Virus record (IMG/VR): IMGVR_UViG_3300029288_004596
Location: 152,900 to 216,899 of that record
Source: a virus
Taxonomy: Duplodnaviria > Caudoviricetes
Strand: one strand, 5' to 3'
DNA: 64,000 nucleotides
Shown here one piece after another: positions 7,072 to 28,061 of the stretch. Below the pieces are notes generated by a model. That model was not told where the DNA came from. It was given only the letters and a program-made list of their open reading frames with translations, and did no database searches. The position numbers and the translations under genes are program-made. The number at the start of each line of letters is the position of its first letter. Position 1 is the stretch's first letter.

Positions 7072-7074
7072 ACT

Positions 7075-7224
7075 ATGGATATATGCAAACTTATAGAGAG
7101 TTATATAACAGCATGCAAATACGATCCTTTCAATCTTGTGCCCGTCCTTCACTGGGTGAGGAATGTCTTGTCTTCTCCCTCTGAGTGCCCAGAATATATA
7201 TGTCATAGGTGTAAGAATGGATAA
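7075..7224 (+). CDS. RxxxG array member 40
   Basis: MDICKLIE...HRCKNG*. Confidence 0.8.
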   Translation: MDICKLIESYITACKYDPFNLVPVLHWVRNVLSSPSECPEYICHRCKNG

Positions 7225-7435
7225 ACCAACTATATATGAAGAGTGGATAGTAAGCGGCATCTCATGCCTTCAGCTTTCTGAGGAAGTGCATCTGCCTTTG
7301 AATGGAATTCCTATCCTTCCTAACATCATAGTGACCTTTCCCATAGTCCCTATTGTCCATAGTAGGAAGAAGTACGCTGAGAATGTCCTTCGGACTCTTG
7401 ATTCCTGTCAGAACCTAAGGGTGTATTATGGGTAG
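7217..7435 (+). CDS. RxxxG array member 41
   Basis: MDKPTIYE...LRVYYG*; paralog of 29. Confidence 0.8.
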   Translation: MDKPTIYEEWIVSGISCLQLSEEVHLPLNGIPILPNIIVTFPIVPIVHSRKKYAENVLRTLDSCQNLRVYYG

Positions 7436-7580
7436 CAGGTGCATATGCTCTCTAGTAGAGAGCCTTATCAACGATAGGACTATATATGGTCTCTGGTTAG
7501 GAGCCCTCCTTGAGTGGGCTCTGATAATACTGGAGACTGAGAATCGCCTGGATGATCTCCGAAGGTGCTGCTGTGGATAA
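7428..7580 (+). CDS. RxxxG array member 42
   Basis: MGSRCICSLVE...RRCCCG*. Confidence 0.8.
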   Translation: MGSRCICSLVESLINDRTIYGLWLGALLEWALIILETENRLDDLRRCCCG

Positions 7581-7737
7581 CTCGGACATCTGCGAACTGA
7601 CAGAGTATATGATAGGACAGTGGATTGTGTATGGACTAGACCCTCCCTTTCCTCAGCCTACATTCTATGGATATCTTCTTGAGATACTGGAGGATGACTT
7701 CTTTGTAGAGGATGAAGTCAGGTGTAAACTTGGATAA
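7573..7737 (+). CDS. RxxxG array member 43
   Basis: MDNSDICELTE...VRCKLG*. Confidence 0.8.
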   Translation: MDNSDICELTEYMIGQWIVYGLDPPFPQPTFYGYLLEILEDDFFVEDEVRCKLG

Positions 7738-7879
7738 TGACATCTGTGAGATAATAGAGTACTCTATAGCTGATTGTGAGGTCCGAGACTATATGGAAGG
7801 AGAGTTCATGGATGAAGTCAAGGAGACCATGGAATCTAACTTTCCTTATGAGGACAGGTACAGGTGCTTCCATGGGTAA
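7730..7879 (+). CDS. RxxxG array member 44
   Basis: TTG start; MDNDICEIIE...YRCFHG*. Confidence 0.8.
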   Translation: MDNDICEIIEYSIADCEVRDYMEGEFMDEVKETMESNFPYEDRYRCFHG

Positions 7880-8024
7880 CAATGATATCTGTGAGCTTAT
7901 CGAGTATTCTATCTGGGATTACTTTGACTATGTCACTTTACATGAAGGGTTCTTAAAGGATGTGTTAGAGTGGCTAGAGGATACCACCTCTGATGGACAC
8001 TGGTATAGGTGCGTAGATGGATAG
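7872..8024 (+). CDS. RxxxG array member 45
   Basis: MGNNDICELIE...YRCVDG*. Confidence 0.8.
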   Translation: MGNNDICELIEYSIWDYFDYVTLHEGFLKDVLEWLEDTTSDGHWYRCVDG

Positions 8025-8172
8025 CTTGGACGTGTGCAATATTATTGAGGAGACTCTCCAGGCTTGGATTATATATGGCGGTTTGAGAAACTATACATTC
8101 CTAGCTGAGGTTCAAGATCTCTTGGAGTGGGAGCTACTTTATGAAGATGTCAGCAGGTGCCGCTATGGATAA
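8017..8172 (+). CDS. RxxxG array member 46
   Basis: MDSLDVCNIIE...SRCRYG*. Confidence 0.8.
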   Translation: MDSLDVCNIIEETLQAWIIYGGLRNYTFLAEVQDLLEWELLYEDVSRCRYG

Positions 8173-8326
8173 CCTCAGCACATTCGATATCCCAGTGATG
8201 GTAGAGTCCTACATAGATAAGATTAGGGAGAACATAGAGTATAACCTTCTTTCCATGGTTCTAGTGGACATGGATTGCAGAGGACTGTACTTCTTTCTCA
8301 ATGCGTACAGGGTGTACTATGGATAA
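8165..8326 (+). CDS. RxxxG array member 47
   Basis: MDNLSTFDIPVMVE...YRVYYG*. Confidence 0.8.
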   Translation: MDNLSTFDIPVMVESYIDKIRENIEYNLLSMVLVDMDCRGLYFFLNAYRVYYG

Positions 8327-8498
8327 CGTATATCAGATGTCAATGTCCAGGGTTGTTGAGTATAATATACAGGCTGAATATAATATTTCTTCTCGCCCCT
8401 TTGGATTTCGTTTCCTGAGGGTAGTTACTTGGTATCTTTATAATAGACCATCTGGAGGAGACCTCAGTAATCCAGAGTTCAGAGTATGGTACGGGTAA
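8319..8498 (+). CDS. RxxxG array member 48
   Basis: MDNVYQMSMSRVVE...FRVWYG*. Confidence 0.75.
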   Translation: MDNVYQMSMSRVVEYNIQAEYNISSRPFGFRFLRVVTWYLYNRPSGGDLSNPEFRVWYG

Positions 8499-8501
8499 CC
8501 T

Positions 8502-8666
8502 ATGTTATATGCTATAGCTAGGGATCTCTGTCACCTTATAGAGCTTTCCATTAGGGTAACTTATTCCACTGGCATTGATCTTAAAACTTCATCGAAAATT
8601 GCTTACTTCCTTGACTGTTACTATGACTATTATAATGACTCTGCCAGGAGGTGCTCTCATGGGTAG
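8502..8666 (+). CDS. RxxxG array member 49
   Basis: MLYAIARDLCHLIE...RRCSHG*. Confidence 0.75.
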   Translation: MLYAIARDLCHLIELSIRVTYSTGIDLKTSSKIAYFLDCYYDYYNDSARRCSHG

Positions 8667-8823
8667 CGATCTTTGCGCTGGGGTAGAAACTTGTATAGGA
8701 AACTATTATAGCGCTATATCTGATGTCATCTATAATTATGGGTCTACTCTCAGGTGGCTGTGCGTATACACTGACAAGGTGATGTGGACCTACTTGGAAG
8801 ACAGGAGGTGCAGGCATGGGTAG
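8659..8823 (+). CDS. RxxxG array member 50
   Basis: MGSDLCAGVE...RRCRHG*. Confidence 0.8.
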   Translation: MGSDLCAGVETCIGNYYSAISDVIYNYGSTLRWLCVYTDKVMWTYLEDRRCRHG

Positions 8824-9013
8824 TGATCTATGCGCTGGGATAGAGCGTTGCATAGGGAACTATTATGGCATTGTATCTAATGTCATTTTCTATTATGGGT
8901 CTACTCTCCGATGGGTGGGACCACATATTAATAAGATTACATGGATCTACAATGAGAGTATGTGGGATGATTCTTCAAGTCGTTTGAACTGGTACAGGTG
9001 CGTAGATGGATAA
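8816..9013 (+). CDS. RxxxG array member 51
   Basis: MGSDLCAGIE...YRCVDG*; recent duplicate of 50. Confidence 0.8.
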   Translation: MGSDLCAGIERCIGNYYGIVSNVIFYYGSTLRWVGPHINKITWIYNESMWDDSSSRLNWYRCVDG

Positions 9014-9281
9014 GTGTGCGTTCTTTGATGGCGTAGCTTATGCTCCTCTAGGAGGAGAACTCATCAAGTTTACCATGGCTATAAAGGGAGTCTTCCCATC
9101 CATGAATATGATAGTTTCCAGCCACCCTTGGTATGGAAGAGAAATCTATCTGGAGACATCACGCTGTCCATTCATAAGGGTTCCTGTTCCTGGAGTCCCT
9201 CCTTCCATAGAATCTTTATCAGAACTATATGGGAACCTCATATCTGTATGTGTCCCGGAAGCTAGGTGTATCAATGGATAA
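9006..9281 (+). CDS. RxxxG array member 52
   Basis: MDKCAFFD...ARCING*. Confidence 0.8.
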   Translation: MDKCAFFDGVAYAPLGGELIKFTMAIKGVFPSMNMIVSSHPWYGREIYLETSRCPFIRVPVPGVPPSIESLSELYGNLISVCVPEARCING

Positions 9282-9429
9282 ACCCATAGACAAATGCAAC
9301 TGGGTGGAGAAGTATATTACCTTGGCATGTGATGGGTTTCTACGTTTTGCCTATGTGAAATGGGCTGTGAGGGATCTTGATAATGTGGAACATGATGTCT
9401 CGGATCTCTTGAGGTGCCTCTATGGATGA
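9274..9429 (+). CDS. RxxxG array member 53
   Basis: MDKPIDKCNWVE...LRCLYG*. Confidence 0.8.
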   Translation: MDKPIDKCNWVEKYITLACDGFLRFAYVKWAVRDLDNVEHDVSDLLRCLYG

Positions 9430-9589
9430 AATATTGACCCCTGTAGATAAGTGCTCTTGGGTAGAGATGTATATCAAAGCTTGTGTAGTACACTTTATTA
9501 CTCTCCCCGCCACTAAGGAGGGTATAGGAGGTATTCCTAAAAGAGACTACACCTATTGCTCAGAGTATACTAGGTGCTGTGGTGGATAA
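9422..9589 (+). CDS. RxxxG array member 54
   Basis: MDEILTPVDKCSWVE...TRCCGG*. Confidence 0.8.
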   Translation: MDEILTPVDKCSWVEMYIKACVVHFITLPATKEGIGGIPKRDYTYCSEYTRCCGG

Positions 9590-9743
9590 GGTGGCTCTCT
9601 TGGAAGGACTTGTAAGTTGTTACTGGTATAACTCTAATGACCCTGACCCTTCCTGGGTGCTCAAAGAGTTGGAGGATCTCTCTGAGGAAGTAGTTCCCTT
9701 GAGTCAGTGGGATGAGGACATAACGAGGTGTGAGTTTGGATAA
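9582..9743 (+). CDS. RxxxG array member 55
   Basis: MDKVALLE...TRCEFG*. Confidence 0.75.
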   Translation: MDKVALLEGLVSCYWYNSNDPDPSWVLKELEDLSEEVVPLSQWDEDITRCEFG

Positions 9744-9891
9744 GCCTGTGTGGATAGAGCTTTGGCTTACTGGGCTGTTTCCTTGGCAGGTAGATAGCAT
9801 GAAGCTTTTTATAGAGTTGAGGGTATGGGACGACTCCTATAGGAAACATACTAGGAAGGACAGGGACCAAGAGAGATGTAAGAATGGATAA
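9736..9891 (+). CDS. RxxxG array member 56
   Basis: TTG start; MDKPVWIE...ERCKNG*. Confidence 0.75.
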   Translation: MDKPVWIELWLTGLFPWQVDSMKLFIELRVWDDSYRKHTRKDRDQERCKNG

Positions 9892-10033
9892 ATGCGTTTG
9901 GCTGGAAGGATGGCTTATATCCTTATATCCTAAGACAGAGGATGAATACAGGACGCTGGCTAACTGGATAGCTAAGGAGTTCTCAAAACCTCATAGGTCT
10001 GCTAATCCTACAGTAAGGTGTCAATTCGGGTAA
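9884..10033 (+). CDS. RxxxG array member 57
   Basis: MDKCVWLE...VRCQFG*. Confidence 0.8.
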   Translation: MDKCVWLEGWLISLYPKTEDEYRTLANWIAKEFSKPHRSANPTVRCQFG

Positions 10034-10221
10034 TGAAATACTATAGAGCTTCAACTTACCCAAGAGATTTGCCAGCTATTCTAGAAGAGATAATAACTGA
10101 TGGCATAGACTGCTATTCTTTTAATGACTTGTTCTCTTGTGAACCCCATCTCTATTGGGCGTATAGGGTTCTTTGTTGCCGTATAGAACTAGATAGTAGT
10201 GCGAGGGTTAGTGATGGCTGA
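10033..10221 (+). CDS. RxxxG array member 58
   Basis: MKYYRASTYPRDLPAILE...ARVSDG*. Confidence 0.75.
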   Translation: MKYYRASTYPRDLPAILEEIITDGIDCYSFNDLFSCEPHLYWAYRVLCCRIELDSSARVSDG

Positions 10222-10232
10222 CAGGAGGTTTC

Positions 10233-10514
10233 TTGGATAGATGCGCTTTCTTTGAAGGAGTATGTTCCTCCAAGTTTAAGGACAGATTCTATGCTGGGAC
10301 TATAGCTTTGGTAGGCGGATTATCAGTAAGAGTTTGGCTCTCCAACACTTTCCGTCTCCCCTTTGGGGTTTACAACATACACCTAGAGTCTCACTGCGAC
10401 TACTTCCATATAGTCATACAGGAAACCGCTAATCCCAGGATTGACCTTAATGAACTATTGTATGAGTTGTTCCTGGTAAATGCAGGAGACACTGTGAGGC
10501 TCTTTAATGGATAA
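10233..10514 (+). CDS. RxxxG array member 59
   Basis: AGGAGG SD, TTG start; MDRCAFFE...VRLFNG*. Confidence 0.8.
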   Translation: MDRCAFFEGVCSSKFKDRFYAGTIALVGGLSVRVWLSNTFRLPFGVYNIHLESHCDYFHIVIQETANPRIDLNELLYELFLVNAGDTVRLFNG

Positions 10515-10677
10515 GTGCGTGGCTATTGAGAAGAATATTAACCATTACCTGGATGACTATCTTCGGGTCCACTACTTTGACCTAATCGGTCAGTATGCAA
10601 ACTATTTAAAAAGGCTGGGTTCTCAAACTTGGATAGAACCCTCACAATCAGGTTCTGTAAGGGTGTATGATGGATAA
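10507..10677 (+). CDS. RxxxG array member 60
   Basis: MDKCVAIE...VRVYDG*. Confidence 0.8.
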   Translation: MDKCVAIEKNINHYLDDYLRVHYFDLIGQYANYLKRLGSQTWIEPSQSGSVRVYDG

Positions 10678-10840
10678 GTGTGAGGCTATTGAGTTTAACA
10701 TCCTTGAATATATAGAGGTATACTATAGGTATGATTACTCCACCCTCTTCGAGGTTATAAAGGAAGTCATAGAAGATGTGCTTAGGATTGACTGGGAAAA
10801 TCAGGAGATCCTCGATACAGTGAGAGTGTATGATGGATAG
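10670..10840 (+). CDS. RxxxG array member 61
   Basis: MDKCEAIE...VRVYDG*. Confidence 0.8.
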   Translation: MDKCEAIEFNILEYIEVYYRYDYSTLFEVIKEVIEDVLRIDWENQEILDTVRVYDG

Positions 10841-11009
10841 ATGTGAGACTATTGAGACATCTATTGGTTACTATGTAAAGGACTATTTTGGAAATAGAGA
10901 CTCTGAGTTTACCAAATTTTACGTGTGGTGTATTGAGAAAGCAGCCTCTCCTGATTGGATTGAGTCTCGCCACTTACTCCTAGATTCTGTAAGGGTGCAC
11001 GATGGATAG
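10833..11009 (+). CDS. RxxxG array member 62
   Basis: MDRCETIE...VRVHDG*. Confidence 0.8.
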   Translation: MDRCETIETSIGYYVKDYFGNRDSEFTKFYVWCIEKAASPDWIESRHLLLDSVRVHDG

Positions 11010-11166
11010 GTGTGATATTATTGAGGACAACATCTCTTACTATGTGAACACCTACTATGTTTACGGATACAGTATGGAAATGGTTAAGGGAATTCTTGAT
11101 GAGGTCCTAGCACCTAGCTGGGTTACTCCTGATATGCCTGACTCAGTAAGGATAGATGATGGATAA
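11002..11166 (+). CDS. RxxxG array member 63
   Basis: MDRCDIIE...VRIDDG*. Confidence 0.8.
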   Translation: MDRCDIIEDNISYYVNTYYVYGYSMEMVKGILDEVLAPSWVTPDMPDSVRIDDG

Positions 11167-11335
11167 GTGTGTGGCAATAGAGAGTAACATTCAGGAGTAC
11201 TTATATTATACCTCAGGAAAAGAGATTGATGTTTATGGTTTAGCTGGGATTGCTCTGTCTCTCATCAAGGAGGTTCAGTCCCCTGACTGGAAAGCTCTTG
11301 ATCAGCCCAATTATATGAGGGTGCGCAATGGATAA
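11159..11335 (+). CDS. RxxxG array member 64
   Basis: MDKCVAIE...MRVRNG*. Confidence 0.8.
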   Translation: MDKCVAIESNIQEYLYYTSGKEIDVYGLAGIALSLIKEVQSPDWKALDQPNYMRVRNG

Positions 11336-11609
11336 GTGTGTTATAGTAGAAGACGCTCTCTTCTATGATGACTGTTATGATGAGGTTCCAGACTTCTATG
11401 GGGACTTCCTAGAAGGTCTTATTGAGTATGGCATTCGTATTCAGACTAACCTCTGGACTCATAAGAGCAGGTTCACATACTATAATGGGAAGCCTGGTCC
11501 TTGGTTTGCCACCAAAGGTCTGGATATCTGGGGTCTAAGGGACAAGGTCATGGGGTACCTTGTTGGGGTAGCTTATCTGGATCCAAATTTCAGGTGTGAG
11601 AATGGATAA
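11328..11609 (+). CDS. RxxxG array member 65
   Basis: MDKCVIVE...FRCENG*. Confidence 0.8.
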   Translation: MDKCVIVEDALFYDDCYDEVPDFYGDFLEGLIEYGIRIQTNLWTHKSRFTYYNGKPGPWFATKGLDIWGLRDKVMGYLVGVAYLDPNFRCENG

Positions 11610-11766
11610 GTGCGCTGTCACTGAAAGATATATTATTCACTGCATGTTTCTATATCAGGATGATTGGGACTCTGCGAGTACTGTGGTCATCCTTATTAAA
11701 GAGGTACACTCCCCAGACTGGGTGGAACCCGAGTTCCCAGACGCGTCGAGGAACTACAATGGATAG
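11602..11766 (+). CDS. RxxxG array member 66
   Basis: MDKCAVTE...SRNYNG*. Confidence 0.8.
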   Translation: MDKCAVTERYIIHCMFLYQDDWDSASTVVILIKEVHSPDWVEPEFPDASRNYNG

Positions 11767-11944
11767 ATGCACTTTCTTGGAGACAACCCTTATCTACTAT
11801 GATGGGCCTTTCAGACAATACCTTCTGAGTCGTTGGAAGATGTATAGGGAAGAGGATATGATTTATGTTCCCCCTATACCTGATGTTGTCTTTGTTCCCA
11901 ATAGACTTAGCTTAGATGATGAACTCAGGTGCGTGTATGGATAA
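11759..11944 (+). CDS. RxxxG array member 67
   Basis: MDRCTFLE...LRCVYG*. Confidence 0.8.
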   Translation: MDRCTFLETTLIYYDGPFRQYLLSRWKMYREEDMIYVPPIPDVVFVPNRLSLDDELRCVYG

Positions 11945-12116
11945 GTGTCTTATTATAGAAAGTGTTATCTTTCAATCTCTGCGTCAGGTCCGAGATCTTG
12001 CCAATGTTGGAAAAGAGGCTAACCTCTCTTTTGCTGTGTCTTATATTAATAACCATGGGGGCTGGCTTAAGCCCAGGGAAAGAAGGACAAGCGAGTATAG
12101 GTGTAGAAGTGGATAA
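11937..12116 (+). CDS. RxxxG array member 68
   Basis: MDKCLIIE...YRCRSG*. Confidence 0.8.
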   Translation: MDKCLIIESVIFQSLRQVRDLANVGKEANLSFAVSYINNHGGWLKPRERRTSEYRCRSG

Positions 12117-12402
12117 ATGTTCTATTCTAGAAGATGTCTTGTATACTGGTCATATCAATGACTGTCATACTCTGTTCCAGATAAGGAAGATTCTTCCCAG
12201 AGTGCTTAGCGAATACCTTGCTACTCTGCACTTTAATGCTATGACTAGGAAGGTGTACTATACAATAAACTATCCTGGAATGCTTTATCACTCTGTTGAG
12301 TTCGTTCCTGAACTCTCTCTTATTGAGGAACTAGAAAAGCTCTGTCTCCTCTATAAGGACTGGCTTGTATACAGTCCAGTTTGGAAGTGCGAGTTTGGGT
12401 AG
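12109..12402 (+). CDS. RxxxG array member 69
   Basis: GTG start; MDKCSILE...WKCEFG*. Confidence 0.8.
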   Translation: MDKCSILEDVLYTGHINDCHTLFQIRKILPRVLSEYLATLHFNAMTRKVYYTINYPGMLYHSVEFVPELSLIEELEKLCLLYKDWLVYSPVWKCEFG

Positions 12403-12438
12403 ACAACTAGTACAGCCTGTACTGCCCTGGGGATTGCT

Positions 12439-12606
12439 ATGTTCTTAAGTTTCTGTTCAATAATAGAAGACTACATAAGCAGCGGTTTTTATATCCGAAA
12501 GGAACACAACCCTATGGCCAGGCTCCGCAAGGGACTAGAGATAGAAGCTAGGTTTCTGTTCCTGGAGGAGGGTTGTGATGCCGACGTGAGGGTAGAGTAT
12601 GGATAG
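12439..12606 (+). CDS. RxxxG array member 70
   Basis: MFLSFCSIIE...VRVEYG*. Confidence 0.7.
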   Translation: MFLSFCSIIEDYISSGFYIRKEHNPMARLRKGLEIEARFLFLEEGCDADVRVEYG

Positions 12607-12862
12607 GTGCGCAGTCTACGAGTACATCTCAGCCTATGGACGGCGTGAGGTTCGTTATGGTATAATACAGTTTGCTCTGCATAACTTTGGTCCTGTATAC
12701 TGGGACAACTACTATATTGGAGAGCTTCATACTATTGAACTGAAGAAGGATCCTCGCTCTGTTATTGCGATTGAAATTCACTGTGGGGAGGGTGTTGAGG
12801 AAGCTGTCAACTCTCTTCTATCGAATACATTACCGCCCAATGTAAGGGCGCACTCAGGATGA
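12599..12862 (+). CDS. RxxxG array member 71
   Basis: MDRCAVYE...VRAHSG*. Confidence 0.8.
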   Translation: MDRCAVYEYISAYGRREVRYGIIQFALHNFGPVYWDNYYIGELHTIELKKDPRSVIAIEIHCGEGVEEAVNSLLSNTLPPNVRAHSG

Positions 12863-20332: not shown

Positions 20333-20362
20333 TTGCAAGTAACCTTATAGTAATGCTATAAT
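20333..20362 (+). promoter_or_regulatory. sigma70-type promoter
   Basis: TTGCAA-18 nt-TATAAT with extended TG, intergenic before ssb. Confidence 0.7.
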
Positions 20363-20775: not shown

Positions 20776-21469
20776 ACGAGTTGCGACGGCCCGAGATGAC
20801 AAGGAGAAACAAGAAGCTATTGAGAAAGCCGTCAAGGTGTTTGAGCCGCTCATATATCTTACCATAGAGAAGAAAGGCTCTTCCCTGCATGGAGATGACA
20901 TGGCTGATCTTGTGCAGAATGCCAGGATAGTCATATATGATGCGTTAACTAAGTTTGACCAGTCTAAGGGAGTGGAGTTTACCACCTACCTTATCAAATC
21001 CTTGAGGTCTTCCATATCCAGATCGGAGAAGAAGGCCTCTAAGAATCCCTCTGGTCAGGGGAAGAAGTGGGACATAGAAAATGCCACAGACAAATTCATA
21101 TCGGAGAAAGGGAGGTCCCCTGACAGGGCTGAACTCGCAGAGTTTATGGGTTTGTCTCAGGAGCAGTATGACTATGCTGAAGCTATGTCTAAGACTGTGT
21201 CCCATGCTGAGTTCTGCGAGGAGACATTCGCTTCTGATAGCGAAGATATTCTCTTTGAGTCAGACTTTATGGAAGTGTATTCTTCTCTTCCAGAGAAAGT
21301 CCAGACCATAATATCCATGCGAGCTCAGCAATATACATTCTCAGAGATAGGAGAGGCGATGGGACTTTCGGATTCCCAGGTGAGGAATCTGCTGGTCCGA
21401 TATAGAGACGAGATCTCTAGACTCATGGTGGATAAAGGTTATGAAAAATGGGATTACGATAGTAAATGA
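20747..21469 (+). CDS. sigma70-family sigma factor (phage-encoded)
   Basis: DLVQNA...DALTKFDQSKGVEFTTY (region 2), GRSPDRAELAEFMG (region 3), TFSEIGEAMGLSDSQV (region 4 HTH). Confidence 0.85.
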   Translation: MTREQRLAVERVATARDDKEKQEAIEKAVKVFEPLIYLTIEKKGSSLHGDDMADLVQNARIVIYDALTKFDQSKGVEFTTYLIKSLRSSISRSEKKASKNPSGQGKKWDIENATDKFISEKGRSPDRAELAEFMGLSQEQYDYAEAMSKTVSHAEFCEETFASDSEDILFESDFMEVYSSLPEKVQTIISMRAQQYTFSEIGEAMGLSDSQVRNLLVRYRDEISRLMVDKGYEKWDYDSK

Positions 21470-21941
21470 TGGGGTGGATGTCCAGGTTCCCAATGGGGGA
21501 ATTATCTACCTAGATAGCGGTGTTATGGTTATATATCACACAGGAGTGCCTGTAAGTGGCATCTCCGATGGGTGGTCAGGCGCTTGGATTACAACCAGAG
21601 ATTCTCTGCTAGATGTTCTCTCTGATACAGATTATGTTATTAATAAGACTTTCTGTGACATAGACTCGACAACCAGCTATCAGAATATAGTATCTCTTTT
21701 TGGGACATCCCTAAAACCAGGGGATGGCGAGAAGACTCTGGATATCCTGGTGGATTCGGCTCTGGTTCCTCCTGAAGATGTGGCGCAAGAGATTGCCACT
21801 CTCCTTGGGGTCTCTCCAGATGAAGTCTTTGAAGCTATAAAGTTTACTGAGTTTCCTGAGAGAGATGATATCTTGCATGACATCTTGGAACCAGTTATAG
21901 AGCTTTTGTCAAAGGGGGACGATGGCGATGAGGTGCTATAA
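21441..21941 (+). CDS. hypothetical acidic protein
   Basis: ORF in gene run. Confidence 0.6.
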   Translation: MKNGITIVNDGVDVQVPNGGIIYLDSGVMVIYHTGVPVSGISDGWSGAWITTRDSLLDVLSDTDYVINKTFCDIDSTTSYQNIVSLFGTSLKPGDGEKTLDILVDSALVPPEDVAQEIATLLGVSPDEVFEAIKFTEFPERDDILHDILEPVIELLSKGDDGDEVL

Positions 21942-22680
21942 TAACAAGACTCATAGATATGAGACTATAGACGATCTGACTGGGGCTGTGATTGATACAA
22001 ACCCTATTCCAGTTTCTAAGAAGGATAACAGGACTCCTATTGAGCTTACCTCCATGGACGCCAGACAACTGGTGCCCCATTCAGCTACGCCCAAGTATGA
22101 GTTCTCTCTAGATCCAGGCATTATAGTTTCCAGAGAAGTTTTGCAGAGACTGAGATTTTATATAGGTCTCACAGACACTGAAGTAGGCTGGTATGGACTG
22201 GTCAAGAGGAGAGGGTGGCACTTCTATCTTTATGATGTTTTCCTGCCAGAGCAGGATGTGCACTCCACAACCACTGAACTAACCACTCAGGGTCAGGCTC
22301 AGACTATGAATGACATCATAGCCAAGTATGGGCCTGATGGACCCAATGATCTAAAGTTGTGGGGTCATTCCCATGTCAAGATGGGCACCTCTCCTTCCGG
22401 CCAAGACCAGGATCAGATGGATCAGTTTGAGAAGAATGGAGCTCCCTGGTTTATAAGGCTCATAGCCAATAAGATGGGGAGAATGGAGTTCACTATCTTT
22501 GACTACAAGCAGCACATAGTGATTTCCGACTGCCCATGGGTGATAGAGGAAACTAAGGACACTGAGTTTGAGAAGGCCATAGCTGAAGAGATGTCCGCTA
22601 AGGTGTTCTCCAAGTCCTATCAGACTTATAACTCTCAGGGTCAGGATTGGTATAAGGGTTATAAAAACTATGGACTTTAA
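21922..22680 (+). CDS. JAB/MPN (JAMM) metalloprotease
   Basis: TEVGWYG (catalytic Glu) and HSH-x7-S-x2-D (WGHSHVKMGTSPSGQD). Confidence 0.85.
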   Translation: MAMRCYNNKTHRYETIDDLTGAVIDTNPIPVSKKDNRTPIELTSMDARQLVPHSATPKYEFSLDPGIIVSREVLQRLRFYIGLTDTEVGWYGLVKRRGWHFYLYDVFLPEQDVHSTTTELTTQGQAQTMNDIIAKYGPDGPNDLKLWGHSHVKMGTSPSGQDQDQMDQFEKNGAPWFIRLIANKMGRMEFTIFDYKQHIVISDCPWVIEETKDTEFEKAIAEEMSAKVFSKSYQTYNSQGQDWYKGYKNYGL

Positions 22681-23341
22681 CAGGCAACTCTCAGTCCTTG
22701 ATCCGGGGAAAATATATTCTAAGAGAATCGACCTCATAGGAGTTGGGGCTACTGGTTCCTACATAGCCTGGCTCCTGTCTAAGATAGGAGCTGGGTGTCT
22801 CCACCTATGGGATGGGGATGAGGTCTCTGATGTGAATATCTGCAATCAGATGTTCAGGGAAGACCAGGTGGGAAGACCTAAGGTCCTGGCTGTGAGTGAG
22901 ATGATAAAGGCTGGCTCCGGCATCAAGGCCAATATGCACATGCAGATGATTGAAGGCAAGGAAGAGCTGGGGGAGATAGTGTTTCTCCTCACAGACTCCA
23001 TGTCTTCCAGACAGGCAATATGGGACTCTTGCATTAAAGGGTCTTGCTCCCTTATGATAGAGACAAGGATGGGAGCTGATGAGGGACGGGTCTATGCTGT
23101 AGATCCTAAAGACGAGAAACAGTGCGCATGGTGGGAAGCCACCCTGTGCAAGGACGAGGAGGCCCAGGTATCCGCCTGCGGAACTTCTATGTCCATAGCT
23201 CCCACTGCCGCCTTGGTAGCTTCTGTGGCAGTATGGCAGCTAATAAAGTATCTGAATGAAGACTACATAGAACATGGTCTGGTATTCACCACCAAAAATT
23301 TCAATATTTTCGAGCAGAAAGTAGGAGGACGACATGGTTAG
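22670..23341 (+). CDS. ThiF/E1-family adenylyltransferase
   Basis: IGVGATGS, DGDEVSDVNICNQ, GRPKV, TDSMSSR; candidate catalytic Cys in SACGT. Confidence 0.9.
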   Translation: MDFNRQLSVLDPGKIYSKRIDLIGVGATGSYIAWLLSKIGAGCLHLWDGDEVSDVNICNQMFREDQVGRPKVLAVSEMIKAGSGIKANMHMQMIEGKEELGEIVFLLTDSMSSRQAIWDSCIKGSCSLMIETRMGADEGRVYAVDPKDEKQCAWWEATLCKDEEAQVSACGTSMSIAPTAALVASVAVWQLIKYLNEDYIEHGLVFTTKNFNIFEQKVGGRHG

Positions 23342-23537
23342 AATTTATGTTCCTGGAGCGCCAGTGAGAGAGGTTGCTTGGCAGCCTGGCATGACAGTGG
23401 CGGAGGCTTGCTCCGCAGCTGGAATAGTCCCAACAAACTATGATGTGCAGTTGGCTGGTTTCCCAGCTCAGCTGGAAGACACCATAGAGACAGAGGACGA
23501 CGCTATCACCCTGGCCACCAGAATCAAAGGAAACTAG
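23334..23537 (+). CDS. ubiquitin-like (beta-grasp) protein
   Basis: 67 aa, GMTVAEAC...D-AITL pattern, ends TRIKG-N; directly after E1. Confidence 0.78.
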   Translation: MVRIYVPGAPVREVAWQPGMTVAEACSAAGIVPTNYDVQLAGFPAQLEDTIETEDDAITLATRIKGN

Positions 23538-23567
23538 CAGTTAACAACTGCTACGCTAGGAGAATCT

Positions 23568-23870
23568 ATGGCTTATAGAATTAGACCTCTGGGGAATTAT
23601 GTGGTTATCAAACTACATGAGGAAGCGGAGAAAACTACCGCGGGAGGGATAGTCCTTCCCGCGTCTACTATGCAGAGACCCTCTCTCGCTGAGGTTATGG
23701 AAGTGGGACCGGGTCTCGTGAACATCAATGGCAAGACAATCCCTGTCTGTGTAAGCCCTGGAGACAGCGTGCTCATAAACAGACACGCCCCTGTTGAATG
23801 GGAGCTTCCAGATGGAAGCAAGATTCACATAATACCAGAGGGAGACATAATTGCCATTATCTCAGAGTAG
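23568..23870 (+). CDS. groES: co-chaperonin GroES
   Basis: IRPLGNYVVI, TTAGGIVLP, EVGPG, VSPGDSV, EGDIIAII. Confidence 0.92.
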   Translation: MAYRIRPLGNYVVIKLHEEAEKTTAGGIVLPASTMQRPSLAEVMEVGPGLVNINGKTIPVCVSPGDSVLINRHAPVEWELPDGSKIHIIPEGDIIAIISE

Positions 23871-23878
23871 GAGATACT

Positions 23879-25300
23879 ATGGATTATTGTTTTGTGCATG
23901 AGCCTGATGAAGCTAGGCTCAAGGAACTTATGAGATTGTATGATGGCGCTCCCTACTCCCTCTCTGATGGACGGAGGGGGGCGCTCATACCTTGGGATAA
24001 GCTGGACACTTTGTTCCAGAGATTCCTGAATGTGAACTATGACAGTATAACTGAGTCCGGACACAATGGGATAGGTATGCTGGATACTCAGTTGAACTGG
24101 GGAGACAGAGACCCTGCGGCTGTGGCTAGAGTAGTTCAGAGCGAAGAGAAGTTCAGAGCCAAGTGGGGTTTTAGTCTTTCGGAGTGCCAGTCCCAAGCTT
24201 CTTCAGATTATATCAATAAGAAGATGGCCTCCAATCCTGTTATGCAGACTACCTCTAAGGTCGTATCCTGCAACGCTCCTTATGTAGCTTCCGACATGGC
24301 TTATCTTTCTGATGTCATTCAGGCTAAGGTCAACCTGCCAGTGTCAGTGTACTTTGGGAGTTCGCCTCAGAACTTCAGCGGGCTATCTGTCTACTGGAGT
24401 CCCTGCGAGCCTTTGGCTGGGAAGTTTGTGGCTGATGAGATACCAGCTCCTAACGCCAAGTATATATCAGGCACTAAGCCTATAAACGACGCGTCCGGGA
24501 ATCTGATAGCCTGCACCAACTCTTCCCTTATAAGGCTGTTCTTAGTGGCCAACAAGGGGATAGCATATAACCCTTCCATATATGACTACATAGCTGAGAA
24601 GTTTGCGGATATAGTCAAGGAAGAGTGTGGGTCTCTGGATTTGACCACCATCAAGGTTAGGGAACTGGCCAATAGAAGAGCTAAAGCCAGGCTTTCGTCT
24701 ATAGCCTCTGAACTGAAGTCTGAGAGATCCAGGATGGATACTCTTCAGAAAGACTTCATTGAGTCCTGCTCCAAGTACAATGAGAAGCTGGGAATTTACA
24801 CAGACCTCAACTCAGGCAGCACAGAGTATATAGACAACATAGTCAGGAAGGTGTCTTCCATAGCGGCTATTCCAGAAGTCGCTTCCTGGAGATTGGAAGG
24901 GGATAAGCTGGAGTTTTCCACCAAGATGCTTTACGCCTTTGACCCAAGGACTGCTCAGGTCAGGAAGATTGGGGAGATGTTTGTCTCTGTAAACACCTCT
25001 GATGGTTTCATCAAGGTGACCAATATGTCTTGGACAGTCAGGGGATGCGAGAGCGGAATGCAGGCTCCTCATGTGTTCCCAGATGGAAGACCATGTCTTG
25101 GTCAGCTGGGAACTACCACAGGACCTATGATTGCGGCCATGGACTATGGTCCGTTGGTGTCTTCTATAATAACATATCTTCAGAGTGCCAATGTAGAGGA
25201 CTCGGCTGGCAAGTATGTCCATCGGTGGCCGCTGGCTAATGAGAAAGAAACTGAGGCTTTCAAGGAGAAGTATGCTCATCTATGCTCAATGAAGCCTTAA
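23879..25300 (+). CDS. coiled-coil protein with C-terminal prokaryotic E2 (UBC-like) domain
   Basis: APHVFPDGRPCLG resembles the E2 HPN-x7-C active-site motif; central coiled coil; located in the E1/Ubl/JAB operon. Confidence 0.72.
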   Translation: MDYCFVHEPDEARLKELMRLYDGAPYSLSDGRRGALIPWDKLDTLFQRFLNVNYDSITESGHNGIGMLDTQLNWGDRDPAAVARVVQSEEKFRAKWGFSLSECQSQASSDYINKKMASNPVMQTTSKVVSCNAPYVASDMAYLSDVIQAKVNLPVSVYFGSSPQNFSGLSVYWSPCEPLAGKFVADEIPAPNAKYISGTKPINDASGNLIACTNSSLIRLFLVANKGIAYNPSIYDYIAEKFADIVKEECGSLDLTTIKVRELANRRAKARLSSIASELKSERSRMDTLQKDFIESCSKYNEKLGIYTDLNSGSTEYIDNIVRKVSSIAAIPEVASWRLEGDKLEFSTKMLYAFDPRTAQVRKIGEMFVSVNTSDGFIKVTNMSWTVRGCESGMQAPHVFPDGRPCLGQLGTTTGPMIAAMDYGPLVSSIITYLQSANVEDSAGKYVHRWPLANEKETEAFKEKYAHLCSMKP

Positions 25301-25608
25301 AGTATGTGCCTTATGAGGAGGCCCTGGAATTCTCTGAGTCCTTGGGAGCTAGAGAACAGTTCGTGGACATGATGAAGTGTCTGGGGTCCCTCATAAGGGA
25401 TAAAGTCTTGGAGAGCGTTTATTTTTACCCGGCTAAAGGGTACCTGCTTGTTGATATATTCATGGATGACTTTACCCTGCGCCCCATACAGAGCTTCAGC
25501 AGGATGAGCACAGCTGTGCTGGATTACATACTCGCTCAGGGACGCCCAGACAACTTGAAGATATGCATGAGATTTATAAGTAATGGAAGGTTTTATGACT
25601 CGAGATGA
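25282..25608 (+). CDS. hypothetical protein
   Basis: ORF in gene run. Confidence 0.55.
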   Translation: MLNEALKYVPYEEALEFSESLGAREQFVDMMKCLGSLIRDKVLESVYFYPAKGYLLVDIFMDDFTLRPIQSFSRMSTAVLDYILAQGRPDNLKICMRFISNGRFYDSR

Positions 25609-28018
25609 AGTGCTAGAACAAGCGATTGAGTATTTTAATGGGGATGAACTGGCTGCCCAGGTCTTCCTCAAGTATGCCCTGCAGGATTCGGAGACCTATT
25701 ATGAAGGGTCCCCAAGCGAAGCTCTGGATAGATATGCCAGAGAGATACACAGAATAGAATCCAGGTATCCCAATCCGTTATCCTATGACAGGATAAGACA
25801 TATGCTGGACAGGTATGAGAGATACATACTTGGAGGTTCCCCCATGGCTGGGGTAGGGAACAACTATCTTGGGATGTCCTTATCCAACTGTGTAGTCAGC
25901 CCGTCTCCTAAGGATTCCATATCGGGGATCTTTGATGTAGGCAAGAAGCTAGCTATCTGGTTCTCCAGAAGGTGCGGGGTAGGGAGTAATATCTCCACAC
26001 TGAGACCTGATGGATTCCCAGTCTCCAATGCGGCCAAGACCTCTACTGGGGCTTGGTCCTTTGTGGAACTGCTATCTAATATCTGCGGGAAGATAGGTCA
26101 GAACAATAGAAGAGGAGCCCTTTTAGTGGGCATGGAAGATTGGCATCCAGATATCCTAAAGTTTATAACCTGCAAGATAGATGTCACTAAGATAACCAAT
26201 GCCAATATATCAGTCATGTTGTCTGACGCTTTCATGAAAGCTGTGGAGATGGACGGAACATGGGATCTTGTATGGGATGGGAAAGTGGTAGAGACTATTA
26301 AGGCCAGAGACATGTGGAACCTTATAGTGACCACAGCCACCAAGACTGCTGAGCCAGGTATACTTTTCTGGGACACTTATAAGAGGAGGAATCCTCTTAA
26401 TGAATATCCTGGATTTGAAATGATATGTACAAATCCTTGTTCCGAACTTGGATTGGGAAGTGGTGGAGCTTGCATGCTATCGTCTCTGAACCTTAAGGGC
26501 TTTGTCAGAGACCCTTATACTGAAGGCGCCACTTTTAACTATTCCATGTATGAGTCCTATGTCATGGACGCTGTGAGAATCATGGATGACCTTATAGATT
26601 TGGAACTAGAAGCTCTAGATAGGATTATAAAGTCTACCTCGGAAGACTCCAGAGATATCTTTGAGCTTATGGCTGATGTATTCAGGAAAGGCAGAAGAAT
26701 AGGTCTTGGGATCACTGGTTTGGCTGATGCCTTGGTTGGGATTGGAGTCAAGTATGGTTCTGTAGAGTCTCTTGATGTGGTAGAGAATATAATAAGAACT
26801 CATAGGGATGCGGCCTATAGGTCCAGCATTCAACTAGGTAGAGAAAGAGGAGTGTTCCCAGCGTTTGACTGGGATATAGAGAAGGATAATGAGTTCCTGA
26901 AATCTCTCTCTCCGGACTTATATAATGACATCTCTTCCTGTGGAAGAAGACATGGAGCTTTGCTCACTATTCCTCCTGTAGGTTCAGGTTCTCAGTTAGG
27001 CAGGTGCTCTACTGGAATAGAACCTATATACAGAAGGTCTTATATAAGAAGGAAGAAGTCTACTCCTGGAGAAAGAATAGATAGCGTAGATTCTCAAGGG
27101 ATCAAGTGGACTAACTACATGGTCATTCACCCCTCCCTCCTTGAGTGCGCTTTAAAACATGGATACTCCAGAGAAGATGTGGAAGTTTATCTCTCTGGCA
27201 AGGGGAGTAACCCTGAACTAGAAAAACTGTTGAGCGCGTTTGTTTCCTCAGATGAGATAGACTGGATGGACAGAGTAAAAGTACAGTCTGTACTAACTCA
27301 GTATTTAGACCATGGTTGTTCCTCCACAATAAATCTTCCAGCTGGAACTTCTTCTGAAGTAGTAGGCAACATATACATGGAGTCCTACAAACAAGGACTT
27401 AAGGGAGTGACAGTGTATGTGGATGGATCCAGAGATGGGGTCCTGCTGAGCAAGGAGCCAGACAAGGATTGGTTCCACAGACCTAAGGAACTTTTCTGTG
27501 ATATTCACTGCGTGGAAGCTGTGGTGGATAAGGTAAAGAAAAGATTCGTGGTTATAGTAAGCTTCAAGTCAGGAATTCCCTTTGAGGTATTTGGAGGCGC
27601 TTATGATGACTCAGAAATCTCTGAGGAGTTTCCTCCATTTGTCAAAGGAAAGATTATCCCAGGAAAAGTAGTCAAGCATAAAAGAGAGTCTGGGAGCAGA
27701 TATGAACTGCAGATAGAAGGGGATGGAGTAGTCCACTCATTAGGCAAAGAGTTCCATAGAGGAACCACCGCTGGGTGGAACAAACTTATCTCTCTTTCCC
27801 TGAGATCTCAGCCAGATAACTTGCCTCATGTGGTAGACCAGTTATCCTCAGACTCTGATGTGGCTGGCTATTCAAAGGCAGTTTCTAGAGTTCTTAAGAA
27901 GTATGTGGAGGATGGAGCTATCTCTGGAGGAAGATGCGAGAACTGTGGGCAGAAGACTTTAGTGTACGAAGCCGGGTGTTGCATCTGCACCTCCTGTTCT
28001 TATAGCGGTTGCAGTTGA
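25583..28018 (+). CDS. nrdJ: class II (adenosylcobalamin-dependent) ribonucleotide reductase
   Basis: SLSNC, RRGA, TNPCSE, GACML, RRIGLG, TIPP-G, STINLP, KGVTVY; C-terminal CENC...CICTSC-Y-S-C zinc ribbon; no NrdB nearby. Confidence 0.9.
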   Translation: MEGFMTRDEVLEQAIEYFNGDELAAQVFLKYALQDSETYYEGSPSEALDRYAREIHRIESRYPNPLSYDRIRHMLDRYERYILGGSPMAGVGNNYLGMSLSNCVVSPSPKDSISGIFDVGKKLAIWFSRRCGVGSNISTLRPDGFPVSNAAKTSTGAWSFVELLSNICGKIGQNNRRGALLVGMEDWHPDILKFITCKIDVTKITNANISVMLSDAFMKAVEMDGTWDLVWDGKVVETIKARDMWNLIVTTATKTAEPGILFWDTYKRRNPLNEYPGFEMICTNPCSELGLGSGGACMLSSLNLKGFVRDPYTEGATFNYSMYESYVMDAVRIMDDLIDLELEALDRIIKSTSEDSRDIFELMADVFRKGRRIGLGITGLADALVGIGVKYGSVESLDVVENIIRTHRDAAYRSSIQLGRERGVFPAFDWDIEKDNEFLKSLSPDLYNDISSCGRRHGALLTIPPVGSGSQLGRCSTGIEPIYRRSYIRRKKSTPGERIDSVDSQGIKWTNYMVIHPSLLECALKHGYSREDVEVYLSGKGSNPELEKLLSAFVSSDEIDWMDRVKVQSVLTQYLDHGCSSTINLPAGTSSEVVGNIYMESYKQGLKGVTVYVDGSRDGVLLSKEPDKDWFHRPKELFCDIHCVEAVVDKVKKRFVVIVSFKSGIPFEVFGGAYDDSEISEEFPPFVKGKIIPGKVVKHKRESGSRYELQIEGDGVVHSLGKEFHRGTTAGWNKLISLSLRSQPDNLPHVVDQLSSDSDVAGYSKAVSRVLKKYVEDGAISGGRCENCGQKTLVYEAGCCICTSCSYSGCS

Positions 28019-28027
28019 ACCCACCAC

Positions 28028-28061
28028 AGGGGAGTCCCTTTATGGGGCTCCTCTTTTTTTT
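28028..28061 (+). terminator. rho-independent terminator
   Basis: AGGGGAGTCCC-TTTAT-GGGGCTCCTCT followed by T-run. Confidence 0.8.

Follow-up and report, generated by a model that had tools for sequence, protein, structure and literature searches.

The DNA analysed is a window of 64,000 nt, positions 152,900 to 216,899 of IMGVR_UViG_3300029288_004596, the 217-kb record of an uncultured phage of the Caudoviricetes; coordinates below are positions within this window. Between 21922 and 25300, five genes on the + strand, overlapping or spaced by no more than 30 nt, code for a JAB peptidase, an E1, a ubiquitin-like protein (Ubl, the tag), GroES and an E2-like protein. A previous reading of the DNA, made from the sequence only, had described a contiguous JAB-E1-Ubl-GroES-E2 operon, and all five open reading frames are present as described. 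They lie within a block of replication and nucleotide-metabolism genes, between a sigma factor and RNR and on the same strand as these. A perfect 8-bp hairpin (23535..23553, + strand) begins at the stop codon of the Ubl gene, within the Ubl-GroES spacer; a terminator scan reports it for the minus strand only, and no T-run was found on the + strand.

The second gene (22670..23341, + strand) codes for a minimal, single-domain ThiF-type E1 of 223 residues, with a G24-x-G26-A-T-G29 loop (22739-22756) and, in the crossover loop, a candidate thioester Cys170 (SACG; 23177-23179). The ThiF/E1 assignment, made earlier from the GxGxxG and DxDxV..N motifs, is supported by a Pfam ThiF match of 76.3 bits (cut-off 28.1; E = 2.6e-21) and by the invariance of R5, the GxGxxG loop, D48, D50, K71, D109, R114 and C170 in 9 orthologues. 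In the PDB, E. coli ThiF matches best (2.4e-8, residues 13-196 aligned), and the best PADLOC matches, over the adenylation domain, are to 'E1-E2' models (E = 3.6e-13). ThiF and MoeB are the nearest sequences, and the protein falls far under every ThiF and MoeB equivalog cut-off of NCBIfam. Whereas eukaryotic E1s recruit E2 with a separate catalytic-Cys or ubiquitin-fold domain, the phage E1 has neither.

The first gene (21922..22680, + strand) codes for a JAB/JAMM (MPN+) zinc peptidase of 252 residues. The residues of the E...HSH-x7-S-x2-D motif recognised by the sequence-only reading, E87 (22180-22182) and H149-S-H151, S159 and D162 (22366-22407), are invariant in 6 orthologues. The orthologues lack the N-terminal ~50 residues, suggesting that the true start may be further downstream. 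Matches to database models are weak (Prok-JAB, E = 0.098, 13 bits against a Pfam cut-off of 25; PADLOC JAB, E = 0.022). In the PDB the profile matches CSN5 best, in an alignment that spans HSH..S..D but is not significant (E = 0.14).

The last gene (23879..25300, + strand), for which we chose the ATG at 23879 with AGGAG 7 nt upstream, codes for an E2-like carrier protein of 473 residues. A poorly conserved N-terminal region (residues 1 to ~250) is followed by a linker, read earlier as a putative coiled coil, and by a C-terminal UBC/E2-like domain (residues 325-473; 24851..25297, + strand). The domain contains His398 (25070-25072) and a candidate catalytic Cys406 (25094-25096; motif APHVFPDGRPCLG) in the context APHVFPDGRPC406LG, in which A-P-H replaces the HPN triad of classical E2s. 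Similarity among homologues is confined to the C-terminal third. The protein has no match in Pfam, PHROG, PADLOC or NCBIfam, and the domain none among sequence models of E2 families, including Prok-E2_D; the domain family, which forms some 3000 clusters at 50% identity, likewise lacks a match in Pfam, NCBIfam and PHROG models. The predicted structure of the last ~150 residues, however, has a pLDDT of 94.3, and E2 enzymes are its nearest neighbours, so that the UBC fold proposed earlier holds in the model. E2 enzymes make up all of the best 50 Foldseek matches in the PDB (lowest E 0.011, TM about 0.4), and the best VIA-align match is UBE2S (1zdn; Z 7.2, rmsd 3.0, 106 residues aligned). The Foldseek E is never below 0.01 and Z is below 8, a range that, as the tool warns, can reflect a common arrangement only. 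The nearest structures comprise UBC, RWD and UEV domains, with the CBASS E2 8hsb at Z 5.6, and, of the ESM Atlas clusters in which some Pfam family is frequent, the closest is one of Prok-E2_D (TM 0.52). In the alignment of the family profile with UBE2A, the Cys falls on the catalytic Cys88, but the match is not significant (E = 1.2). The Cys is kept in 156 of 161 domains and the His in 152; in a second set, from IMG/VR loci, the Cys is kept in 91 of 94. Several E2-like proteins have two domains, one of which lacks the Cys and mostly the His too, as in UEV partners. From this predicted structure, whose similarity to known E2s is middling, we read the C-terminal domain as a divergent UBC/E2 fold with a near-invariant candidate Cys.

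The tag gene (23334..23537, + strand) codes for a protein of 67 residues that ends, as had been noted, in R-I-K-G66-N67 (G66-N67 at 23529-23534). Its AlphaFold model is a ThiS/MoaD-like beta-grasp, as anticipated (pLDDT 90.6; lower, mean 66, over tail residues 61-67), and the top Foldseek matches are TtuB, SAMP1, SUMO2, ubiquitin and MoaD (TM 0.6-0.74). Pfam ThiS (PF02597) is found in some homologues, and the tag does not match Pfam Prok_Ub. Unlike ubiquitin, the tag has no Gly-Gly end. The tail reads [K/R]-G-N in nearly all copies, and all 29 homologues that were aligned keep both G66 and N67. Among 73 unique domains from IMG/VR, the Asn is present in every recognisable tail and is more conserved than the Gly, in place of which a few copies have Ser or Ala (KSN, KAN). 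Conservation ends right after the Asn: the next position is occupied by about a dozen residue types or a stop codon, and the Asn is the last residue in 25 of 65 recognisable tails. Extensions past the Asn vary among relatives, from none at all up to entire additional domains or more copies of the tag. Four loci (L009, L024, L033 and L039) code for 2-3 head-to-tail tags, every unit ending in KGN (the three units of L009 end in KGNQ, KGNQ and KGNK), and in other relatives the tag is followed by more than 20 additional residues; these precursors require a cut at the K-G-N tail. Eukaryotic polyubiquitin genes similarly consist of head-to-tail repeats with a short C-terminal cap, but their units meet at Gly-Gly rather than Gly-Asn, and the phage studied has a single unit.

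We compared 80 IMG/VR phage loci retrieved with the E1 profile; their contigs measure about 5 to 208 kb, and many exceed 100 kb. JAB is present in 77 of these loci, the E2-like gene in 67, and all four genes (JAB, E1, Ubl and E2-like) in 58, in varying order. The E2-like, JAB and E1 genes are also adjacent in all 10 independent metagenomic loci that were found via the E2-like protein and had enough flank. The recurrence of the four-gene combination in 58 of the 80 phage loci and in 10 other metagenomic loci argues against chance, and the tight linkage extends over roughly 90 phage loci. GroES (23568..23870, + strand; 100 residues; Cpn10, E = 3e-20; PHROG co-chaperonin GroES, 7e-18) lies beside the cassette in none of the 80 related loci, and no GroEL was found in the genome of the phage studied. 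Thus, the four genes are a conserved cassette, and GroES, which had been counted as an operon component, is an insertion peculiar to the phage studied; the phage-encoded Ubl-E1-E2-JAB set itself is borne out.

In T4-like phages, GroES serves as a chaperone of assembly, and here it adjoins the tag gene. A role of the cassette in virion morphogenesis, like that predicted for the tail-assembly pair TAPI (Ubl) and TAPK (JAB) of lambda and T1 (Iyer et al., 2006; PMC1779556), nevertheless seems very unlikely to us: the cassette studied is outside the structural genes, neither E1 nor E2 occurs in TAPI/TAPK systems, and GroES is unlinked to the cassette in other loci.

We consider it likely that the four genes form a phage-encoded ubiquitin-like protein-conjugation cassette, with GroES as a bystander, and we infer the following chemical steps. 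The flexible tail R-I-K-G-N of the tag would be offered to a homodimeric ThiF-type E1, its C-terminal carboxylate adenylated with ATP, and the tag taken by Cys170 as a thioester. It would then be moved to Cys406 in the UBC-like domain and joined to a target amine, presumably of a lysine, the target being chosen by the variable N-terminal two-thirds of the E2-like protein with no E3. That such targets would be host or defence proteins, as the earlier reading proposed, is speculative. The JAMM peptidase would cleave at the tail, in relatives freeing tags from poly-tag or tag-fusion precursors, and would probably also reverse conjugates. A predicted complex of two E1 copies, the tag and the E2-like domain scored 0.32, against 0.05 for the best of three controls; of 80 solved complexes and 110 mismatched pairs, 58 and 2, respectively, reach the mark applied, but only 7 of the 80 solved complexes, along with both passing mismatches, do so with scores of 0.60 or less. 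The three runs disagree (contact agreement at least 0%; partner pLDDT at least 77), and the prediction lends the cassette weak support.

The end that is activated could be Gly66 after removal of Asn67 or Asn67 itself, and we put the two at about even. With the latter, for which the chances are evenly split, the cassette would be the same, E1 would activate the C-terminal Asn and JAB would cut after it, so that the tag of the phage studied would need no trimming. Since the Asn is the most conserved residue of the tail and conservation stops after it, an Asn that is part of the mature tag fits at least as well as an Asn that is a cap; the variable sequence past it leaves removal by JAB, as proposed earlier, and a mature Asn end in balance. 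The pattern hydrophobic-basic-small-Asn resembles the L-R-G-G of ubiquitin, and MccB, a ThiF-fold enzyme able to activate a C-terminal Asn, is among the PDB matches of E1 (E = 1e-5, Rossmann part only). The phage E1, however, lacks the N-terminal peptide-clamp domain of MccB, the invariant Asn could instead be an S1' determinant of the peptidase, and single-Gly ends occur in Atg8, Atg12 and UFM1. To our knowledge, all characterised Ubl-E1 pairs activate a small terminal residue, and JAB-associated ThiS-like proteins are trimmed to a bare Gly (QbsE/QbsD). Once activated, a C-terminal Asn tends to cyclise, as in MccB chemistry, which would complicate a plain thioester relay; possibly, an Asn-derived succinimide would be used in place of a Gly thioester.

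The proximity of the tag to TtuB and MoaD and of E1 to ThiF and MoeB would also suit a sulfur carrier (a ThiS/MoaD/TtuB-like thiocarboxylate) for a phage cofactor or tRNA thiolation pathway. We regard this as extremely improbable. The sulfur-transfer genes thiG and moaE, reported earlier as absent from the window, were not found anywhere in the 217-kb record, nor was rhodanese, and none of the three was called in the related loci examined. In addition, an E2-like protein with a conserved Cys is nearly always linked to E1, relatives have poly-tag precursors, the tail is Gly-Asn and not Gly-Gly, and E1 scores well under the equivalog cut-offs. The archaeal SAMP/UbaA/JAMM1 and Thermus TtuB/TtuC systems, whose small ThiS/MoaD-like tags are the nearest structures of the phage tag, resemble the conjugation cassette in their JAMM peptidase and their minimal E1 of one domain, but they lack an E2 and also act as sulfur carriers.

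Membership in Bil, Bub, CBASS Cap2/Cap3 or PRTRC was considered and rejected on the defining features of each. The type 6d operon (Iyer, Burroughs and Aravind, 2006; PMC1779556) has separate genes for Ubl, a conserved-Cys E2-like protein, JAB and a single-domain E1-like protein, as here. There is no membership at the sequence level (PRTRC_ThiF, Prok-E2_D, Prok_Ub and Prok-JAB; the phage E1 scores 26.8 bits against a PRTRC_ThiF cut-off of 144.75), and the phage cassette differs in lacking the helical third protein and ParB, in a His 8 residues before the Cys (6d proteins have none at the usual E2 position and one further downstream), in the Gly-Asn end and in its carriers, mostly large phages. 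Type 6d was predicted from genomes only, and we found no experimental test of it in the literature; likewise, we found no paper describing a Gly-Asn-tag phage cassette and no experimental test of any family member. BilABCD (types I and II), a bacterial ISG15-like anti-phage ubiquitination system (PMC10557695; described in PMC11601596), has a Ubl, E2, JAB and E1 but no E3, an E2 thought to pick the target and Cys thioesters that lead to lysine isopeptide bonds, all as proposed for the phage. In contrast to Bil, the phage E1 consists of a single 223-residue domain and carries its Cys in the crossover loop, the 473-residue E2-like protein starts with a large non-homologous region, the tag is a lone 67-residue beta-grasp with a Gly-Asn end, and a phage, rather than the host, encodes the cassette. 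Operons of the Bub type (6E/DUF6527; PMC11601596) likewise combine a diverged Ubl, E2 and E1 with a JAB, and their Ubls, made up of 1-3 beta-grasp domains, require cleavage. They proceed through oxyester intermediates, however, lack a catalytic Cys, fuse Ubl to E2 and JAB to E1 and employ a serine protease, DUF6527, whereas the phage has four separate proteins and both Cys conserved. CBASS type II Cap2/Cap3 shares a JAB antagonist, and its 'E1-E2' models are those best matched by the phage E1 in PADLOC. Cap2, however, is an E1-E2 fusion and the CBASS modifier is the C-terminus of the cyclase itself, whereas the phage has separate genes and a dedicated Ubl; no CD-NTase (SMODS) was found in its genome.

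Bil and CBASS Cap2/Cap3 are anti-phage systems (PMC10557695, PMC10097602), and the cassette could likewise be a phage-carried defence or superinfection-exclusion system that, like Bil, tags structural proteins of rival phages and is not a host-directed tool. The highly variable N-terminal regions and duplicated E2-like genes resemble arms-race targeting modules, and one copy (L013) lies within a cellular-looking contig. Against this, which we think unlikely, the cassette studied sits among replication genes transcribed in the same direction, the family recurs on the often large IMG/VR contigs described above, and no integrase or defence-island neighbours were seen within the 64-kb window. Rather than a defence island, the conjugation cassette looks like a phage function, in host takeover, counter-defence or the regulation of phage proteins.

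The genes at 21922-22680 (JAB), 22670-23341 (E1), 23334-23537 (the tag) and 23879-25300 (the E2-like protein) form a real, conserved phage-borne cassette for ubiquitin-like (Ubl) conjugation, the mechanism of which we infer. Its parts are a JAMM peptidase, a minimal E1, a tag with a Gly-Asn end and an E2-like protein of an unrecognised family. The window spans bases 152900-216899 of its source record (IMG/VR, 216.9 kb), which is 93% complete by CheckV. Genes for SSB and a sigma factor lie upstream of the cassette on the + strand, and those for a class II-like ribonucleotide reductase, a UvsX-like recombinase, a clamp loader, a clamp, a helicase and a DNA polymerase lie downstream, also on the + strand. 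Identity between the helicase and those of large Bacillus and Listeria phages is only about 31%, which makes the source an uncultured and deeply divergent large phage. No cultured-phage relative emerged when 21000-26000 was compared by blastn with 50,697 phage records, and ARAGORN found no tRNA genes in the whole 217-kb record.

The sequence-only reading had described five contiguous genes, with GroES (23568-23870) between the tag and the E2-like protein; all five ORFs are real and close-packed, and each motif quoted in that reading was found. The JAB gene runs 11 nt into E1 and E1 runs 8 nt into the tag gene, the gap between the tag gene and GroES is 30 nt, and the ATG of the E2-like gene, at 23879, has an upstream AGGAG and lies 8 nt past the GroES stop codon. 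A promoter-like site with an extended -10 (20333-20362) and the sole strong terminator-like hairpin, of 11 bp followed by T8 (28028-28054), both recognised by consensus match only, flank the genes, so that one long transcript, from SSB through the reductase, probably covers all five. The 30-nt spacer also holds a perfect 8-bp inverted repeat, TAGCAGTT AAC AACTGCTA (23535-23553), which starts on the tag stop codon and has no T-run after it on the + strand.

By its profile matches, E1 is a clear member of the ThiF family (Pfam ThiF, E 2.6e-21, 76.3 bits against a cut-off of 28.1). Its 223 residues make up one adenylation domain, which aligns nearly end to end with the 251-residue ThiF of E. coli. 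Across 9 orthologues the GxGxxG nucleotide loop (G24, G26, G29), the Asp, Lys and Arg residues of the ATP site (D48, D50, K71, D109 and R114) and Cys170 are invariant, and Cys170 is found in a loop at the site where ThiF likewise has a Cys. The scores against NCBIfam models fall far under the curated cut-offs, for the ThiF equivalog (61.8 bits, the best, against 275.25), UbaA (21.7 against 450) and PRTRC_ThiF (26.8 against 144.75), on which last score membership of PRTRC was rejected. The protein therefore stands outside the named ThiF, MoeB, UbaA and PRTRC_ThiF families. In one related locus (L005:3165-3834) E1 is split into two overlapping ORFs of 153 and 83 residues that jointly span the whole domain, the result of either a frameshift or an assembly error; E1 is intact in a close relative of that locus (L008).

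JAB carries a full predicted JAMM/MPN+ zinc and catalytic motif (Glu, HxH, Ser, Asp). The corresponding residues, E87, H149-S-H151, S159 and D162, are invariant across 6 orthologues that share just 29-38% identity. Matches to known JAB families are weak (Prok-JAB, E 0.098; PADLOC JAB, E 0.022) and, at 13 bits against 25 for Prok-JAB, the protein is below the Pfam gathering score. The top PDB match of the JAB profile, CSN5, is non-significant, and its alignment falls exactly on the JAMM motif.

Conservation among homologues of the 473-residue E2-like protein is confined to the last 150 residues or so. For the N-terminal 260 residues, the ESM Atlas gave no usable feature match and structure matches had a TM of 0.31 or less. 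A model of the C-terminal domain (residues 325-473), built with 68 sequences, had a pLDDT of 94.3. The top 50 PDB matches found by Foldseek were all E2 enzymes, with weak scores (best E 0.011, TM about 0.4). In an independent VIA-align comparison of all against representatives, UBE2S headed the list, with 106 residues aligned at an rmsd of 3.0 and a Z of 7.2, hence at a Z below 8, which may reflect merely a common arrangement; the rows under it were nearly all UBC, RWD and UEV domains, the CBASS E2 8hsb having a Z of 5.6. Because the match list is so uniform, and with the other evidence, we find the assignment persuasive despite the Z below 8. The UBC fold proposed earlier for this domain is thus borne out at the level of the predicted fold, with moderate scores. 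In the ESM Atlas, viral families of uncharacterised proteins ranked nearest (TM 0.80), and a Prok-E2_D cluster came next (TM 0.52).

The candidate catalytic residue is Cys406 (Cys82 of the domain), which in the model lies directly before a helix (84-95) and is invariant in the 68 aligned sequences. The top PDB match of the E2-like profile, UBE2A, is non-significant (E 1.2); the alignment sets APHVF..G..C over HPNVYADGSIC88, with Cys406 on Cys88. The HPN triad itself is absent from the domain, which has A-P-H-V-F there, with the Pro aligned and a His at the position of the HPN Asn. Of 161 domains from the highest-ranking family members, 156 retain the Cys, as do 91 of 94 from the IMG/VR loci. 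The Cys is missing, mostly together with the His, from one copy in the two-domain proteins P0007, P0008, P0021, P0028 and P0042, and from one copy of an E2-like pair at L014:2509-3732; APLVLASGRALFS is an example of a Cys-less copy. By analogy, these recurring pairs of an active and a Cys-less copy resemble an active E2 with a UEV-like partner, and are reminiscent of Ubc13 and its UEV partner.

Searched against 1.84 billion representative proteins, the profile of the domain matched 3005 clusters at E <=1e-3 and 1563 at 1e-10. By this measure, the domain family is very large, numbering about 3000 clusters at 50% identity, and curated models do not recognise it. The E2-like protein matched nothing in Pfam, PHROG, PADLOC or NCBIfam, and no Pfam model matched the 78 members tested (10 family members and the 68 aligned domains). 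The Pfam E2 families (UQ_con, Prok-E2_A to E) gave zero matches to the 68 members at E up to 5, Prok-E2_D gave none when the genome was searched in six frames (E up to 10), and tblastn of the domain against the 50,697 phage records found no match.

The structure of the tag, predicted from a 29-sequence alignment, is a beta-grasp (pLDDT 90.6; mean 66 for tail residues 61-67). The closest solved structures are TtuB, SAMP1, SUMO2, Caldiarchaeum ubiquitin, MoaD and ubiquitin, with a probability of 1.00 and a TM of 0.6-0.74 for TtuB, SAMP1, SUMO2 and ubiquitin. Model and nearest structures agree with the fold suggested earlier for the product of 23334, the C-terminal tail being predicted less confidently. 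Pfam ThiS is present in some homologues. Gly66 and Asn67 are invariant among the 29 aligned homologues; the tag ends in K-G-N and not in Gly-Gly. Among 73 unique tag domains from the IMG/VR loci, 58 have the KGN tail; the exceptions (KSN, KAN, VGN and RGN) retain the Asn and differ upstream of it. Past the Asn, of the 65 recognisable tails among the 73 domains, 25 have no residue, 13 have 1-3 variable residues and 25 have more than 20. In these long extensions lie more tag repeats, a second and divergent tag domain, or some other domain. In one such poly-tag (L009), three units end in PIKGN-Q, PIKGN-Q and PIKGN-K; three units are also found in L039, and two in L024, L033 and L056. Extended and poly-tag precursors need cutting at the tail, an obvious job for JAB. 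A second, divergent type of tag-like domain, ending in TP(L/K)xVxGA, is found next to the Gly-Asn tag, alone or in tandem, in five IMG/VR loci (L016, L023, L028, L035 and L073), several of which add a second JAB gene (E2L-JAB-E1-UBL-UBL-JAB).

The tag might instead serve as a sulfur carrier. This seems unlikely, since poly-tag precursors occur, since an E2-like protein with its Cys is nearly always linked and since the whole genome has no ThiG, MoaE or rhodanese. The lack of sulfur-transfer genes noted earlier for the window thus holds genome-wide for these three.

A search of IMG/VR with the E1 profile yielded 80 loci (137 candidates); their contigs measure roughly 5 to 208 kb, and many exceed 100 kb. 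JAB was found in 77 of the 80 loci, the tag and the E2-like gene in 67 each, and all four genes in 58. Conversely, every E2-like homologue traced to a contig with enough flank adjoins JAB and the same E1 subfamily. Gene order varies, the commonest being E2L-E2L-JAB-E1-Ubl, Ubl-E2L-JAB-E1 and E2L-JAB-E1-Ubl. Linkage that outlives rearrangement marks out a functional unit, here JAB, E1, the tag and the E2-like protein. GroES, which had been counted as a fifth component, does not belong to that unit, as it adjoins the cassette in 0 of the 80 related loci. No GroEL (Cpn60) was found anywhere in the 217-kb genome. GroES is here a neighbour of the cassette and, by analogy with T4 gp31, presumably acts together with the host chaperonin. 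Two flanking genes, coding for proteins of 166 and 108 residues, were also rejected as components, having no BLAST homologues in the related loci L002 and L005.

The E2-like/E1 family is mostly viral, as judged from ESM Atlas taxa and IMG/VR, and a domain-profile scan of GTDB species genomes, pattern-based and insensitive, returned nothing. One cassette, with a 1072-residue E2-like protein, JAB, E1 and a tag ending in KKLRGN (L013:1982-7040; Logan SRR32573209, a 21-kb contig of 58.6% GC), lies in surroundings like those of a bacterial chromosome, with ybaB-recR on one side and rplU, a glycosyl transferase family 4 gene (PF00953), ruvX, map, adk, secY and rplO on the other. This suggests that the family is not strictly viral. 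A full-text literature search, in which subscription journals were thinly covered, found no paper on such a phage-borne cassette.

Several known systems were considered and set aside. In type II CBASS (Cap2/Cap3) the protein modified is a CD-NTase and E1 is fused to E2, unlike in the phage cassette, in which E1 and the E2-like protein are separate genes; no match to SMODS (CD-NTase) was found in the genome. BilABCD was excluded on E1 architecture, its E1 having an inactive and an active adenylation domain and a mobile Cys domain (PMC11601596), against a single 223-residue adenylation domain here. Bub (6E) works through oxyester intermediates without a catalytic Cys, fuses Ubl to E2 and JAB (or E2) to E1, and employs a DUF6527 protease (PMC11601596); in the phage family Cys170 and Cys406 are conserved and the four genes are separate, which excludes it. 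The nearest described layout is operon type 6d, with standalone Ubl, E2-like, JAB and E1 genes (Iyer et al., 2006; PMC1779556), but no 6d sequence model matches the phage proteins and the 6d helical protein is missing here. The microcin C-type pair MccB/MccA was rejected because a terminal Asn is the sole shared feature. MccB carries an N-terminal peptide-clamp domain and acts on a short peptide ending in Asn, whereas the phage E1 has no N-terminal domain, aligns with MccB over residues 10-87 only and would act on a folded 67-residue beta-grasp.

Which residue forms the activated end of the tag depends on where JAB cuts. A cut between Gly and Asn, as the sequence-only reading had it, would expose a Gly end. 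Trimming of the known JAB-linked ThiS-like proteins exposes a Gly, and Atg8, Atg12 and UFM1 have single-Gly C-terminal ends, in keeping with such a cut. A cut after the Asn would leave a mature tag ending in Asn. In known Ubl families conservation runs up to the cleavage site and stops there, and in the tags it stops after the Asn; moreover, the Asn is conserved more strongly than the Gly, and more than a third of the tag genes terminate exactly at it. As far as the sequences go, they favour neither side of the Asn, and we regard the two cuts as about equally probable. Were the Asn end the activated one, the minimal ThiF-type E1 would adenylate Asn67, perhaps via a succinimide, as in the chemistry of MccB, the tag would move via the E2-like Cys onto its targets, and JAB would cleave past the Asn. 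That the tag is the first Ubl activated at an Asn and not a Gly, passed along an E1-E2-like relay after a JAB cut behind the Asn in a tagging by the phage that Gly-specific host enzymes would not undo, is as a whole a tentative proposal, to which we give somewhat less than an even chance.

Two copies of E1, the tag and the UBC-like domain were co-folded, with the UBC-like domain as the scored partner (pLDDT of at least 77). The score was 0.32, the best of 3 controls reaching 0.05, and the runs agreed in at least 0% of contacts. Among 80 solved complexes 58 attained the mark, against 2 among 110 mismatched pairs; at 0.60 or under, just 7 of the 80 attained it, as did both passing mismatches. 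The prediction thus lends weak support to an E1-tag-E2-like assembly and barely moves the odds.

An array of translationally coupled mini-proteins extends over about 12 kb of the + strand (827-12862). Counting ATG-started + strand ORFs of at least 38 residues with a start between 700 and 12900, 60 of 62 end in Gly, nearly all in R-x-x-x-G, and in many cases the last Gly codon overlaps the start of the gene that follows (TAT GGG TAA over ATG GGT AA, for instance). From their C-terminal Gly, it is pure speculation that these mini-proteins are alternative substrates of E1, and it remains so because none of the small ORFs adjoining the cassette in the related locus L002 ends in Gly.

To our knowledge, prokaryotic Ubl conjugation has so far been tested just as bacterial anti-phage defence (Bil, CBASS Cap2/Cap3), and we know of no role assigned to Bub. 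The same kind of machinery is a conserved part of many large phage genomes. Reconstitution should be easy, the four proteins being small and separate, and from the invariant Gly-Asn tail arises a clean question that is cheap to test, a strict one-residue cap or a new residue activated by E1. If the tag is activated at its Asn, the Gly-specific deconjugating enzymes of the host would be unable to undo the tags that large phages would place on host or phage proteins. The conservation of the cassette across many large phages suggests that protein tagging may also serve the virus, as a weapon or as a regulator.
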